The translations under genes and the position numbers were made by a program. The notes under the pieces are model-generated. The model saw only the letters and a list, made by a program, of their open reading frames with translations, did no database searches and was not told the origin of the DNA. Shown here in pieces: positions 7,350 through 53,235 of a stretch of DNA of 64,000 nucleotides (its first letter is position 1; every line of letters begins with the position of its first letter). The stretch comes from Candidatus Oxydemutatoraceae bacterium (lineage in GTDB: Bacteria; Pseudomonadota; Gammaproteobacteria; Poriferisulfidales; Oxydemutatoraceae), in the NCBI GenBank assembly GCA_965218975.1, contig OZ244717.1:192001-256000 (forward strand). The letters run 5' to 3'.

Positions 7350-7883
7350 TGTACAGTGCCAGATACATGTGGGAATCACCCGTGATTGAGCAGTGGCTGA
7401 CCTATCCCAAGTGTCCAAAAATGAACGCGCACATTGAGCGCTTCAACCGTACCGTCCAAGAAGATTGTATCGATCACGCGGAAGACCTGCTATTCACTGA
7501 TACGGAAGCATTTGATGACCAGCTATGAAACCGTTTTGTGTTTGTTGCCGGATTTTCGGCGGATTGTGCCGGATTGTCGGCAAAGTGCCTGTCATCCATG
7601 ACGCGACTGGGTTCTGTCAACAAGCTCCAGCCCCGACGTCCTTGTCGGGTCGTTCACCGCTGAAAACCAATTGGTTTTCCGGGCGCGTCTCACCCATGAC
7701 GAGACTTGGTTCTGTCAATGAGCACCAGCCCCGACATCCCTGTTGGGTCGTTCACCGCTGAAAACCGATCGGTTTTCCGGGCGCGTCTCACCCGGCAACG
7801 GACAGAAAGCACCGACCCGAATGTTACTGCCGAACGCTTCCCCAGAAGCTCTTCAAGAATCCCATTTAGGGTGGCATCGTACA
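7350..7883 (+). mobile_element. Internally deleted IS481-like element with both ends and 2 copies of the 98-bp module
   Basis: Left end TGTACAGTGCCAGATACATGTGGGA; right end TCCCATTTAGGGTGGCATCGTACA; core fragment WLTYPKCPKMNAHIERFNRTVQED; modules at 7598-7695 and 7696-7793. Confidence 0.85.
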
Positions 7884-7991
7884 GTAAGTTGTAGGTTTCA
7901 TTGTTTGCTCGTATAATCTAGCATCCTAGTGAAAACCAGCAATGCTAATCGGAGCTACTTTAAATAAAAGGCCTAAAACGAGAAGAAACTC

Positions 7992-8300
7992 ATGTATGCA
8001 GTGATCGTTACCGGCGGGAAACAATACCGGGTCTGTAAAGGTGATGTCATCCGCGTCGAAAAACTACCTGTTGAAAATGCCTCAACAGTGAATTTCGATA
8101 AAGTGCTGATGATCAAAAATGAAGATCAATGTGAGATTGGCGCCCCTTATTTGGAAAATAACCGTGTCACCGGCAGAGTGATTACCCAAATGCGCGGCAA
8201 AAAAATTGATGGAATTAAATTCAAACGGCGCAAAAATTACTTGCGCCGTTACGGACACCGTCAGCATTATACGAGTGTTGAAATTACTGAAATCTGTTAA
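7992..8300 (+). CDS. rplU: 50S ribosomal protein L21
   Basis: MYAVIVTGGKQYRV...FKRRKNY...GHRQ.YT. Confidence 0.98.
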   Translation: MYAVIVTGGKQYRVCKGDVIRVEKLPVENASTVNFDKVLMIKNEDQCEIGAPYLENNRVTGRVITQMRGKKIDGIKFKRRKNYLRRYGHRQHYTSVEITEIC

Positions 8301-8315
8301 TTGAGATAAAGTCGG

Positions 8316-8573
8316 ATGGCACATAAAAAAGCAGGCGGCAGTACTCGGAACGGTCGTGACTCGCATTCTAAGCGGCTTGGGGTGAAAAAATACGGTAACG
8401 AACAGGTGCGTGCCGGTAATATCATTATTCGTCAACATGGTACCCGCTATCATCCCGGTGTAAATGTCGGTTGCGGTAGGGATTACACCTTATTTGCCAA
8501 AGTTGACGGATGCGTTCGATTTGAGCGCAAAGGCTCCCGTCAACGCTATTTTGTCAGCGTCCTCCCTAGATAA
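8316..8573 (+). CDS. rpmA: 50S ribosomal protein L27
   Basis: [23 protein letters not shown]. Confidence 0.98.
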
Positions 8574-8638
8574 TATCTTCTATTTAATCAAGCAAACTGT
8601 TAAAGCCTTGTACCGCTGGCTTGACTGTGGCAATTGGC

Positions 8639-9658
8639 ATGCGGTTTGTTGATGAGGCAACGATTACGGTGCGCGGCGGTGACGGCGGTAACGGATGCGT
8701 GAGTTTTCGGCGTGAGCGTTTTATTCCGCGCGGCGGTCCCGACGGTGGTAATGGCGGTGATGGCGGCAGCATTTATCTGGTCGCGACCGATAGCTTGAAT
8801 ACCTTAGCCGATTTTCGCCATCAGCATTTGTTTGAAGCTGGGAAAGGGAGCAATGGTGCGGGGGGCAATCGTGCCGGTAAAGCCGGTAAAAATCTACGTG
8901 TCCGTGTCCCCGCCGGAACTCTTGTATATAACGATACGGCTGGTGAATTAATTAGCGACCTAGCTCGTACCGGTGAAACATTACTGGTTGCATGCGGCGG
9001 GCAGCATGGTGTTGGCAACGTCTGTTTCAAAAGTTCAACTAACCGTACCCCGCGGCAAAGCACATTCGGCAAACCCGGCGATGAAAGGCGTTTAGCACTG
9101 GAATTACAATTGCTCGCGGATGTCGGTTTAGTCGGATTGCCTAACGCCGGCAAATCTACATTGTTGGGTGGGATGAGCGAATCGCATCCGAAAGTGGCGG
9201 ACTATCCGTTTACCACATTAACTCCCGTGTTGGGAGTCGTCAATATCAACGCATGGCAATCTTTCGTCATGGCGGATTTACCGGGTTTGATTCGAGGCGC
9301 CGCACAAGGATTCGGGCTGGGTACACGCTTTCTGCGTCATATTCGAAGGACACGATTATTGCTTCACTTGGTGGATGTTTCCGACCTACAAAAATCATAT
9401 ACTGATGTACGTATTATTGAGCAAGAGCTCATTGCCGCCGAGGGGAATTTGATGGCTTACCCTCGCTGGTTAGTATGCACTAAAGCGGATACTCATGTAG
9501 GAGCAAAAAAGCAATGCGCCGAACTGGTTACACAGTTAAACTGGCAAGCGCCGATGTTCGTCGTTTCCGCAGTTACGCGACAAGGATTACAAGCGTTACG
9601 ACTTGCAATTATGCAGTTTTTAGACAGCGCCAAAAGTAATGACAGAACAGAAAACTAA
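8639..9658 (+). CDS. obgE: GTPase ObgE/CgtA
   Basis: MRFVDEA, Gly-rich Obg domain, [19 protein letters not shown]. Confidence 0.97.
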
Positions 9659-50899: not shown

Positions 50900-51212
50900 T
50901 TTATAAGGATGACTTGTTTTCCCTAATAGGATATTTAGGTACTCAGTTAATAGAAGTAAACATGAACTACAATTAAGATGCATACGGGTTTGAGTGTACC
51001 AAAGGCTGATAACCAGACAATTCTAAATTGGAAGTATGATATTGAAAATGCTTCTGTGCTATATGGAACACGTATGGGTGATTTGAAAATCCGGTTAATC
51101 ACTACAAGAATGGTAACAGAGGATAGACAGGACTGGCTAACCAAGAATGACTTGTGGGATGTATTAGATTCATACAGGGGTAATCATGTGGGGGATGGGG
51201 GTAAGTAAAAAA

Positions 51213-51779
51213 ATGAGAGTTATTTTGCTGGCCATGGTCATGATGATAGTGATCTTTGTTCTCTCTGCGTGTTACATCACACCTTACATCACACCGGACT
51301 GGCCCCGGTTGAAGGAATTTTCTGAACATCAGGTAAGGTGGAAATCATACGAGACCACGCGCTACCGGATGCGACTTGAGCGAAACTGTTTTTGCGGTGA
51401 AGATTATCTACGGCCACTCATTGTTGAAGTTCAGGTGGGGAAGACGATGGAGTTGCCTGTATACGGCAGTAAAGAATTTTTACAGCCTCGTACAACTGTA
51501 GTCCGAATCGAAGATGTAGAGTCGGCCGTATACGAGGATGATGGAAAGCCAGTCCCTTTGGACGAGCTCCAAAGGATTGCATCAATCGATTCCCTGTTCC
51601 ATAGGATATACATTGCAAGTTTACGGAATCCAAGCCTTACTCAGCGCATCATGGATGACCTGGTACAGGTTGATTACAATGCCGAGTACGGCTACCCAGA
51701 GTTTGTGGTATTTGATTCAGATGCGATGACTGATGCTTACATTAGCTACGATGTTGAACTTTTGGATATAATCCGTTGA
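51213..51779 (+). CDS. Passenger putative lipoprotein (DUF6174-like)
   Basis: Signal ending in the lipobox LSAC; W......Y...LER.CFC, IDSLF, Y...YGYP. Confidence 0.65.
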   Translation: MRVILLAMVMMIVIFVLSACYITPYITPDWPRLKEFSEHQVRWKSYETTRYRMRLERNCFCGEDYLRPLIVEVQVGKTMELPVYGSKEFLQPRTTVVRIEDVESAVYEDDGKPVPLDELQRIASIDSLFHRIYIASLRNPSLTQRIMDDLVQVDYNAEYGYPEFVVFDSDAMTDAYISYDVELLDIIR

Positions 51780-51785
51780 ATAAGT

Positions 51786-52007
51786 ATGGCTATAGGTAAA
51801 TACTTGAGCCTCGAAGAAGCTCGCAAAAAGAATTTGCTGGATCGTTTTGCCAAGGAACATCCATCCGTAGCGGACGGGCGTTTCTGGCCTTTGCTTAATT
51901 CTATAATTAAAGGGAAGCAATCAAGTCAGGAAACATCTGTTCAGGCTTGTCCCGATAGTTGTAGCGAAACTCAAACTCCTTCAGATACTTCCGAAGATGC
52001 TTCTTAG
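51786..52007 (+). CDS. Small passenger ORF overlapping the transposase 3' end
   Basis: 73-aa ORF (KYLSLEEARK...LDRFAKEHPS). Confidence 0.4.
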   Translation: MAIGKYLSLEEARKKNLLDRFAKEHPSVADGRFWPLLNSIIKGKQSSQETSVQACPDSCSETQTPSDTSEDAS

Positions 52008-52764
52008 ACACATGGATATGTGTACCACGAATGCTCAACTTAAGGCGTGCCCAAAAACCTTCAATGCTATTGACATGAGAGCCACCGCTTACCCATTTGC
52101 CAGCACCATGATTGACCCTCTTATGCTCAAACCCTTCTTTGTCCAGCCCGGAGTAAGAACGAAGCTCATCCGTATGGACTGTGCTTCCCTGCTCAACATT
52201 TTCCTTAATGATCGACTGCAAAGTGCGCTTTTTGACGTTCGGAACAATTTTGGTCATTACATCCCCATCCCTGTCCAACATGCCAAAGGCTATAGCCTTG
52301 TTCGGAGCACCGCGACCGCGCTTTCCGCCAGAAGTCTTACCGCCAATATAGGTTTCGTCAGCTTCAACATGCCCGTCAAGAGGGTTTTCACCGTCCGTAT
52401 CAGACATGTGCTCACGTATCTTGTGAGCCATTCTCAAAGCAGTTGGATAGGCAACTCCAAGCTGGCGTTGCAGTTCCAAGGCGGGCACTCCGTGTCTTGT
52501 GGTGGTGAACAAGTAAATAGCATAGAACCACTTCTGCAAGGGGGTATGGGAGTTTTCAAAGATCGTTCCTACCATCGGATGAATTTGATGTCCGCACCAA
52601 GCACACCCATAAGCAGTGTCACGTTTGACTCTGTGAAACTTCCCGTGCTTCCCGCACTTGGGGCAGTCCATAGTCTCCCCATGCTGCTTGTGCATCAGGA
52701 ACTCAAGACAGGCTTCATCATCCGGGAACTGTTTCATAAACTCTTGAATTGTTGTGGGTTTCAT
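51907..52764 (-). CDS. IS1595-family DDE transposase, intact
   Basis: Zn ribbon CPKC..C..C, VEADETY.GG, VHTDE, HVNSIEGFW, YL.EF.FRYN. Confidence 0.95.
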   Translation of the reverse strand: MKPTTIQEFMKQFPDDEACLEFLMHKQHGETMDCPKCGKHGKFHRVKRDTAYGCAWCGHQIHPMVGTIFENSHTPLQKWFYAIYLFTTTRHGVPALELQRQLGVAYPTALRMAHKIREHMSDTDGENPLDGHVEADETYIGGKTSGGKRGRGAPNKAIAFGMLDRDGDVMTKIVPNVKKRTLQSIIKENVEQGSTVHTDELRSYSGLDKEGFEHKRVNHGAGKWVSGGSHVNSIEGFWARLKLSIRGTHIHVSKKHLRKYLKEFEFRYNYRDKPEQMFPDLIASL

Positions 52765-53235
52765 GGTGTATCTCCTATCGTTGAAGAAATATTACCATGA
52801 ATACTTACTTGTGTCAACTATATAATCACGAAACCATTTTGTGTTTGCTGCCGGATTGTCGGCGGATTGTGCCGGATTGTCGGCAAAGTGCCTGTCACCC
52901 ATGACGAGACTTGGTTCTGTCAATAAACCCCAGCCTCGACGTCCTTGTCAGGTCGTTCGCCGCTGAAAAGCAATTGCTTTTCCGGGCGCGGCTCACCCTG
53001 CAAGAATCCCATTTAAGGTGGCATCGTACAAAGTGTAGAGTTTCTCAATCAGTCATTGTACAATGCAAGGTTTATATTCGTGGTCGTACCACGAATAGAA
53101 CATAAAGCACAAGTCCCTATGTTATTATTTCGTTCGTAATGAAGATTGCTGTTTTAGCATATAAATTATTGCTTATACATAACTTCGGCATTACATGATG
53201 CCTCTTTATAAGTACACTGATGCCCGTTTTTTAGG

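Follow-up and report, generated by a model that had tools for sequence, protein, structure and literature searches.

A structured 98-nt module probably spread as a passenger minisatellite of defective IS481-type elements

The pneumococcal BOX element (boxA-(boxB)n-boxC) is a modular interspersed repeat whose variable internal tandem unit measures about 45 nt, while the repetitive extragenic palindromic (REP) sequences and bacterial interspersed mosaic elements (BIMEs) that go with REP-associated tyrosine transposases (RAYTs), like the palindromic derivatives of the IS200/IS605 insertion sequences (ISs), are small hairpin repeats without terminal inverted repeats or target duplications, arranged in arrays and specific in orientation. 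In E. coli, the tyrT gene is followed by tRNA-linked tandem repeats of 178 bp (RtT RNA), and members of the IS481 family typically begin with TGT. The present study concerns a 98-nt structured module, here called M, found in tandem within decayed relatives of IS481 in a 64-kb window of a Candidatus Oxydemutatoraceae genome (bases 192001-256000 of a single contig of 2,081,000 bp; 47.7% G+C). The elements that hold M, referred to below as carriers, share the modular layout and variable tandem unit of BOX, and M itself shares with the REP-type repeats their hairpins, their arrays, their fixed orientation and their lack of terminal inverted repeats and target duplications.

[quoted passage not shown] As far as the part of the published account available to us goes, BrickBuilt is non-autonomous and bounded by inverted repeats, has a spacer-less tandem interior with a 'leader' and a 'tail', varies in unit number between copies, and occurs in many copies per species within a limited host range (PMC4596501). 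The carriers of M agree with it in all of these respects, their arrays lying between the two inverted-repeat ends of the IS and containing 88 M-M junctions without any gap. They differ from it in several ways: (i) the unit measures 23 nt in BrickBuilt (PMC4596501) and 98 nt here, or 107 nt with a spacer; (ii) the carriers are 0.5-2.9 kb long and retain recognisable pieces of an IS481-type transposase gene; (iii) the five-helix unit has relatives outside any IS, in another genus; and (iv) BrickBuilt is described as carrying promoter elements (PMC4596501), of which none was seen inside the one carrier scanned here. BOX is likewise predicted to fold and thought to be mobilised in trans (PMC3049150), but it lacks remnants of a transposase and does not lie nested in an IS. 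In contrast to REP/RAYT systems, M is much longer, its copies here lie inside IS481 DNA, and the Y1 transposase gene (PF01797) had no match in this genome, with a control that matched in 6 of 14 genomes, or in the related genomes G004, G008 and G012. Two of these, G008 and G004, contain units that resemble RtT in being tandem, in lying beside a tRNA gene and in each bearing a short copy of the tRNA end; unlike RtT, the G008 units lie upstream of the gene and antisense to it, and the Rfam search of the G008 and G004 loci returned only the tRNAs and two weak matches to plastid families, both over the tRNA-Lys gene. With the IS481 family, the carriers have in common the remnants of the rve domain, TGTAYA...GTACA ends, 5-bp target duplications, a C-terminus of the form ...YNLHRPH... 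and an M-free derivative of 607 bp, but no intact transposase is left and most copies hold foreign tandem modules in the gene. Full-text literature searches, whose scope did not include subscription journals or ISfinder, yielded no description of an IS481-borne tandem module.

Our analysis indicates that M most likely multiplied as a passenger of its carriers and by local tandem duplication, and not by attacking the IS. The account that we consider probable is that a pre-existing structured module was captured once by an IS481 element, spread with the defective derivatives of that element and was amplified and reshuffled inside them by slippage and unequal recombination. Comparison of the copies indicates, first, that M is foreign to its carrier, because the M-free copies read uninterrupted through the insertion point. 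In five or six M-free remnants, the piece termed T (about 60 codons around the last catalytic residues) continues into the piece termed R (the last codons and the right inverted repeat, IRR) through unbroken coding sequence (...FNDRLWEYLAWYNLHRPHAGNGQKAP), and the native C-terminus encoded there carries ...YNLHRPH.... The M-bearing copies lack 23 nt of this native sequence and have in their place about 20 nt of filler, 11-nt microrepeats in variable number, a constant leader and at least one M. The ends of M resemble by eye the region encoding LTDGGSEF, and local alignment led us to reject the idea that M is a diverged transposase piece, the leader with M reaching a Smith-Waterman score of 16 against 488 nt of the native gene (shuffle mean, 16.9). 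Also rejected was a derivation of leader and M from the left inverted repeat (IRL) or other IS sequence (scores of 16 and 15 against the two strands of an M-free element; shuffle mean, 18.6), as was a progenitor elsewhere in the genome, for which an nhmmer search with M masked gave array edges and chance-level matches only. A 134-nt linker, k, accompanies M; its head scored 12 and 15 against the tail of T and the central part of the gene (C), which is the level of shuffles, and it was dismissed as a diverged copy of either. These comparisons bear out an earlier note, made from the letters of the window alone, which had held that M is not native IS sequence; the two module-free remnants on which it relied are real, the one an IRR-side piece (58369-58459) and the other a C-terminal piece with the IRR side (60369-60629).

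In the 2.08-Mb genome as a whole, BLAST returned 326 matches of M, 308 of them at least 80 nt long, and about 30 kb (1.5% of the genome) consists of the 98-nt unit. When M was mapped together with five query pieces, namely L (IRL and about the first 60 transposase codons), C, T, R and k, 124 loci emerged, typically laid out as L M k M M T k M M R and measuring 0.5-2.9 kb. Of the 316 M matches that are 61 nt or longer, 291 have an IS481-specific piece (41 nt or longer) no more than 1 kb away, on the same strand in 286 cases and on the opposite one in 5, and the other 25 fall in 10 loci, most of them with shorter IRR ends or with remnants of two further IS481 subfamilies; the confinement of M to IS481 remnants that had been proposed for the window extends, for most matches, to the genome. 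The ends of the carriers read TGTAYAGTGCC...GGCATCGTACA in 41 IRL-IRR pairs (form TGTAYA...GTACA), and their sizes range from 529 to 2905 bp. As members of IS481 they show the inverted repeats, the target duplications and fragments of the DDE/rve core, while a single intact transposase frame is absent. PF00665 (rve) gave only 8 partial matches, the highest of them scoring 34.7 bits where the cut-off is 32.6, and the fragment P0001 scored 24.8 bits, under the cut-off; on this profile search, no intact IS481 transposase gene is present in the genome, the longest rve-bearing frame having 246 aa and consisting partly of translated M. Set beside a MITE, with its length of a few hundred bp, the carriers have inverted repeats, target duplications and no working transposase, but they reach 2905 bp and keep gene fragments. 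The 607-bp M-free element is an L-T-R deletion derivative. Contigs assembled from reads stop at carrier ends, and M- or carrier-like pieces occur in runs X5, X7 and X8 of other studies. M was also rejected as an intrinsic terminator or promoter, since neither a terminator-like nor a promoter-like site was found inside the one carrier scanned.

The way in which M is embedded points to shared descent. The same leader stands directly 5' of M in 182 of 191 arrays, whatever lies further upstream, and the 3' flanks of the arrays belong to few classes (R in 66, k in 38, T in 28, C in 19, k-tail in 9, the IRR end in 5, a B-type transposase in 3 and other sequence in 23). Two haplotypes of M, a and b, together with their recombinants, hold fixed positions in the carriers ('L bb', 'k aa', '... 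bb R'). Mean pairwise identity is 0.9075 for M and 0.898, 0.912 and 0.936 for the carrier parts L, R and T, respectively, and the closest relative of a 98-nt copy (n = 268) lies in another carrier in 182 cases and in the same carrier in 36, with 50 ties. A perfect 5-bp target duplication flanks 5 of the 41 IRL-IRR pairs in strict register (CCCTT, ACTTA, GCGCC, TCTAT and ACTGA), where about 0.04 would be expected by chance, and all five of these carriers hold 2-8 copies of M. The idea put forward in the earlier note, of a non-autonomous element that repeatedly targets and fragments the IS, is not borne out by the shared leader, the few contexts and the equal age of M and its hosts; what that note had named as the finding that would speak against it, descent from one insertion spread passively with the IS, largely matches the leader, the haplotypes, the divergence and the target duplications.

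Within the window, an 18-nt hairpin core of M matched 24 times at up to two mismatches (expected, 0 from 100 shuffles), and BLAST with one copy, followed by alignment, placed 26 copies of the 98-nt unit at eight sites, every one oriented as its transposase remnants in the BLAST map, which agrees with the number and the orientation first reported. Tandem Repeats Finder (TRF) gave periods of 97-98 for the M arrays, with higher-order periods of 195 (95% matches) and 232 (98%). The copy numbers originally given for seven remnants (2, 4, 1, 2, 6, 3 and 8) hold for the first six, and the final 8 resolves into 7 + 1 in two remnants 2.7 kb apart; similarly, of the two lengths of 98 and 106 bp, the first stands and the second is M plus a 9-nt spacer, TGCTCGTCC. 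The carriers and remnants are as follows.

7350..7883, plus strand: carrier E1, an IRL stub fused to T (7371-7531), k-tail and leader (7521-7597), two M (7598-7695 and 7696-7793) and an IRR side ending GGCATCGTACA; sequence read and BLAST map.
11341..12117, minus strand: carrier E2, truncated on its left side, with the IRR side at 11346-11445 and a T fragment at 12049-12117; BLAST map.
Within E2, minus strand: four M (11448-11545, 11611-11708, 11709-11818 and 11905-12002) with k pieces interspersed, the copy at 11709-11818 being a 110-nt variant with a 12-nt internal duplication.
13953..14317, minus strand: carrier remnant E3, with the IRR side, one M (14042-14139), k pieces and a short L fragment; BLAST map.
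18298..19469, minus strand: carrier E4, with the IRR side, a first M at 18405-18502, k-tail, T at 18550-18751, a second M at 18757-18854, C (from the centre of the transposase gene) at 18901-19212, and then k and L positions 176-302; BLAST map.
29229..30821, minus strand: carrier E5, complete, 1593 bp; sequence read, BLAST map and TRF period 232 (2.6 copies, 98%).
Within E5, minus strand: the L end (30500-30815; IRL and the first ~60 transposase codons), then k plus M three times (M at 30383-30480, 30151-30248 and 29919-30016).
Remainder of E5, minus strand: M (29821-29918), T (29610-29815), k-tail, two M (29446-29543 and 29348-29445) and the IRR side (29235-29345).
44361..45289, minus strand: carrier E6, with the IRR side, then three M (at 44467-44563, 44573-44670 and 44671-44767), followed by k-tail, fragments of T and of C, and diverged L; BLAST map.
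49419..50463, plus strand: carrier remnant E7, with k, seven M (49509-50191), C (50193-50392) and k-head; sequence read, TRF and BLAST map.
52830..53030, plus strand: remnant E8, with k-tail and leader, one M (52901-52998) and the final ~30 nt of the IRR; BLAST map.
58369..58464, plus strand: M-free IS481 remnant, IRR side only (58369-58459 in the BLAST map).
60369..60634, plus strand: M-free IS481 remnant, T joined to the IRR side directly via native coding sequence.

The seven copies of E7 form a 195-nt higher-order repeat of two alternating M variants, and three of them show a compensated change in hairpin C (GAAAAGC...GCTTTTC). The 11-nt microrepeats (CGGATTGTGCC / GGATTGTCGGC) lie just 5' of the leader at 7546-7581, at 52852-52884 and upstream of most arrays; they number from 0 to about 4, shift the frame of any open reading frame (ORF) that crosses them, and resemble the 5' end of the ancestral module.

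Turnover inside the carriers is also visible in the spacing of neighbouring copies, where, besides the zero-gap junctions, gaps of 9 nt (the spacer TGCTCGTCC), 99 nt and 254 nt occur 28, 18 and 10 times, respectively, the 99- and 254-nt gaps being whole k or T + k units. The 110-nt variants, also read at genome positions 2068290-2068990, arose by internal slippage of 12 nt. At genome positions 1034800-1035700, a unit of 302 nt is triplicated in tandem, comprising a partial M (~27-98) and the 5' part of a minus-strand host gene (its upstream region and first ~13 codons), which we read as Fic-like from the N-terminus that it would encode; the unit is joined at a short sequence shared with the 3' flank of M, and the junctions of the M arrays likewise show short sequences shared with native sequence on either side.

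Relatives of M were found outside any IS481 element in a sister genus of the same family. A covariance model of the window copies (R1) gave weak matches in two of its genomes, G008 and G004, and a second model (R2), built only from the two full G008 units and the G004 unit beside tRNA-Thr, returned in the reverse search at least 149 matches in the present genome, the best at 61 bits, each of which spans 13 nt of the leader in addition to M. In M-rich carriers, the leader belongs to the ancestral module, as its alignment with the 5' part of the modules in G004 and G008 shows. In G008 (L023 1226-1705), three tandem units of ~125 nt, each followed by an 18-nt copy of the tRNA-Lys 5' end, lie upstream of tRNA-Lys and antisense to it; in G004 (L027 1413-1660), one module directly adjoins tRNA-Thr on its 3' side, and after it stands a 13-nt repeat of the tRNA 3' end, past which come a second, partial module start and further ORFs. 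R2 also detected a second G004 module, which abuts tRNA-Ser and scores 65.5 bits, and in G008 another three modules, diverged and at 26-37 bits, which are intergenic and not near any tRNA gene. The module-bearing tRNA-Ser gene of G004 (L066) has an IS3-type element on its opposite side. Altogether, three of the six sister-genus loci abut tRNA genes, the orientation of the modules relative to neighbouring genes is not constant, and modules are present in 2 of 5 genomes of the genus (g5) as judged by R2. G004 has 8 IS481-like gene matches, and its only two modules, both beside tRNA genes, lie outside them. The 25-nt motif GACNTCCNTGTCNNNNCGTTCRCCG, at up to one mismatch, has 298 occurrences in the present genome, three in G008 and one in G004; none of the order's other 50 genomes contains it, and a control with the reversed pattern gave no match.

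With regard to structure, four pairs are compensated between G008 and G004 alone. In a cross-genus alignment of 25 members (A5), in which 86.4% of cells are paired, both-sided changes affect 20 of 34 pairs, where shuffles give 11.3 (none of the 500 reaching 20) and slid controls 4-9, although the alignment was fitted to the R2 structure, which biases the counts towards it, and three genomes represent few independent lineages. On these alignments, five helices covary across genera, with the reservation that perfect palindromes cannot separate RNA from DNA. The occurrence of relatives outside IS481 in a sister genus, with conserved helices, implies that the module family is older than its association with IS481. 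Beyond these genomes, two exact M patterns had no match in genome contigs, two M patterns had none in metagenome contigs, and BLAST with M found nothing in 40 relatives. In a sample of 400 other genomes of the class, G004 was matched without mismatch and 10 others gave 11 one-mismatch matches, against 3 for the reversed control, which we read as chance. Three further candidates were set aside, G012 at 24.6 bits with R1 and unconfirmed by R2, and G015 and G007 at only 23-28 bits with R2, the match in G015 lying inside a 709-aa frame.

Taken in sequence, the steps that we envisage are these. M would be the core, 98 nt long, of a module of ~111-125 nt that folds into five short helices and predates the link to IS481; in the sister genus, the module is low-copy and intergenic and often abuts a tRNA gene. 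In the lineage of the present genome, one copy, with ~20 nt of filler, would have lodged in the 3' part of an IS481 transposase gene, at the expense of 23 nt immediately ahead of the conserved HRPH motif. The defective elements that resulted retained the inverted repeats at both ends and may have been moved in trans by a transposase since lost, carrying the module to about 100 places, a carriage to which the target duplications and position-specific haplotypes testify. At these places, the module and the 'k + M' unit would have undergone repeated duplication, deletion and reshuffling, through slipped-strand or template-switch events and through unequal recombination between short homologies, with breakpoints preferentially at the module 3' end (...CTCACCC); the junctions are seen directly, and the mechanism is suggested by them. 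M would then be a passenger minisatellite of a non-autonomous IS family and not its parasite.

Several observations weigh against this account: (i) 36 of the 41 IRL-IRR pairs have no perfect target duplication; (ii) the diverged IS481 subfamilies with M-bearing junctions number at least three, and the junctions occupy several positions in the gene, which requires several recombination events or several insertions; (iii) among 39 complete carriers compared, only one pair shows collinearity at 95% identity across more than 80% of the length, a second pair reaching 81%, so that transposition of M-bearing structures is deduced from target duplications and haplotypes and not from identical copies, and interiors have often been reshuffled since dispersal; (iv) no autonomous IS481 copy was found in the genome, and the closest genes in 300 other scored genomes of the class are ~40-48% identical; (v) the account supplies no origin for the k linker or the 20-nt filler; (vi) cross-genus covariation points to some constraint beyond a pure 'junk' account; and (vii) carriage as a passenger does not by itself explain why modules sit at tRNA ends with the same polarity, or why the module 3' end is a recurrent duplication breakpoint in three genomes. 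A bolder interpretation, rather unlikely in our estimation yet worth stating, would take the ~125-nt five-helix module for a new kind of small structured element, which moves or provokes recombination by an unfamiliar route, accompanied by no known HUH, reverse transcriptase, IS110 or nearby integrase gene, lands at tRNA ends in fixed polarity, and in this lineage landed in an IS481 transposase gene, its 3' end (CTCACCC) acting as a favoured breakpoint that seeds tandem arrays, leaving the IS481 family disabled and taken over by its passenger.

If M were instead a functional structured nucleic acid, either a sense RNA or a multi-hairpin single-stranded DNA, it would be retained because it serves the carrier or the host, for instance as a cis-acting transposition element, a signal for processing or stability, or an array that proteins bind. 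The covariation in 20 of 34 pairs and the four pairs compensated between G008 and G004 agree with such a role, but the first count comes from an alignment fitted to the model structure, and perfect palindromes can also be maintained by hairpin-templated repair. As transposase-sense RNA, a variant-a copy is predicted to fold into a closing stem and three hairpins (-37.9 kcal/mol; z = -3.7), whereas z lies between -1.0 and -1.8 for five other M sequences; a further 5' hairpin spans the boundary between leader and M, so that, of the fold first proposed, the possible closing stem stands and the count of two hairpins does not. The four common stem polymorphisms keep pairing by G-U on the sense strand, whereas low-frequency stem changes are mostly uncompensated C-A mismatches, with no overall strand preference. 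Among the 26 window copies, both-sided changes occur at 3 pairs (5 cells), and genome-wide there are a few compensated changes, in the third hairpin. Minor-allele frequency in this genome is 0.0246 at paired and 0.0234 at unpaired positions (P = 0.59), and from this equality of stems and loops the M copies here seem to decay neutrally. M-bearing non-autonomous elements do far outnumber M-free ones, but the carrier scanned has no terminator- or promoter-like site, the orientation relative to neighbours is inconstant in the sister genus, and Rfam, searched with the whole window at gathering thresholds, matched only a tRNA, while carrier E5 at E <= 10 gave three matches of 15-17 bits against cut-offs of 43-80, which fits the original remark that no described family was recognised for M. 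All told, we judge a functional role of this kind unlikely.

A mobile, non-autonomous M inserted many times by an enzyme, into a favoured sequence of IS481 transposase genes as well as next to tRNA gene ends, would account for the lack of terminal inverted repeats, for the several junction types in three IS481 subfamilies and for the sporadic presence in 2 of 5 genomes of genus g5; it would not lead one to expect the identical 5' flank in 182 of 191 arrays, nor an M that is neither younger nor more uniform than its hosts, nor junctions with short shared sequences of the type left by illegitimate recombination. In the sister genus, the module 5' end faces a tRNA gene end at three of six dispersed loci, and the duplicated tRNA piece of 12-18 nt that follows the module looks like a footprint of insertion or integration; in the present genome, however, no M copy was seen outside IS481 DNA by M-masked nhmmer and proximity mapping, although not all 10 leftover loci were checked singly. 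Our searches for a mobilising enzyme produced no candidate. Besides the missing Y1 gene, profile searches of the genome found no reverse transcriptase, IS110 or MOBQ-type relaxase gene, and a Y2 search gave no match but is uninformative, its control having matched nowhere. Tyrosine recombinase matches number six in the genome, taken as about five genes, one of them split and inside the window, and only two in G008. With one leader, few contexts, a host-like age and no candidate enzyme, M does not behave as an independent mobile element, and we hold repeated insertion to be improbable.

The tRNA context also suggests an island end, in which the module would be the terminal arm of a tRNA-integrating element (a remnant of the cis-mobilizable element, or CIME, type) trapped in an IS481 copy near a tRNA gene, and this we regard as very unlikely, for although the G004 module lies between tRNA-Thr and the repeat of its 3' end with a partial module start and ORFs beyond, each G008 tandem unit closes with 18 nt of tRNA-Lys, and an IS481-derived piece lies no more than 600 bp from 13 of the 45 tRNA genes here, the modules go with three different tRNA genes, on the 5' as well as the 3' side, the surroundings of the G008 and G004 loci hold no integrase (in G004, the nearest non-Xer match is 51 kb off), three further G008 modules are away from any tRNA gene, and the tRNA-Met end is not repeated near carrier E1. 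For E1 itself, an island origin was rejected, as the tRNA-Met 3' end was not found repeated in the window.

Other features of the region are recorded here in their own right. The IS481-derived pieces near tRNA genes come as close as 19-52 bp, and a rough chance estimate for their number is ~6, which makes the excess about twofold. At window positions 4282-5471, tRNA-Met(cat) is followed by the tyrosine integrase gene split in two frames, of which PF00589 matches only that at 4971-5471, and the stretch from 4 to 8 kb has 56-58% G+C against about 42-50% on either side; it probably represents an island in decay. At 12771-14117 on the minus strand, the gene for a 448-aa Sel1-repeat protein (Pfam E = 1.6e-83) contains a coding tandem repeat of 108 nt (6.6 copies; higher order, 324 nt). 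On the plus strand, the gene at 47620-49182, for a protein with a formylglycine-generating enzyme (FGE)-sulfatase and a peptidoglycan-binding domain, has a 93-nt tandem duplication at 48482-48666, and E7 begins ~240 bp downstream of it. A gene for a dehydrogenase dependent on pyrroloquinoline quinone (PQQ) lies at 27200-29014 on the minus strand, ~215 bp beyond the IRR of E5, and the only promoter-like site of the region, at 29194-29223, lies between the two. Elsewhere in the genome, a second, apparently intact IS (e.g., 417850-419526) has an ORF of 558 aa, read from its sequence as a transposase of the IS4/IS1634 type, in at least 11 full-length copies (1677 nt) and shorter fragments; each listed copy has 16 relatives above 80% identity, and several copies adjoin IS481 remnants. 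Giant ORFs with internal repeats reach 58.6 kb (928235-986878), 27, 23, 17 and 15 kb, and near-identical carriers, at 841282 and 879561, each lie just upstream of one of them.

To conclude, the carriers of M show with unusual clarity, for bacteria, how a transposable element can serve as the nursery of a minisatellite, a process familiar from eukaryotes of which bacterial descriptions are rare. The family of structured modules to which the passenger belongs is undescribed, with helices that covary across genera and with members that elsewhere sit at tRNA genes, and the ~300 natural variants of M are available for testing the role of the structure and whether hairpin-rich units cause template switching. 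For annotation, the carriers explain short-read assembly breaks and spurious ORFs in these regions.

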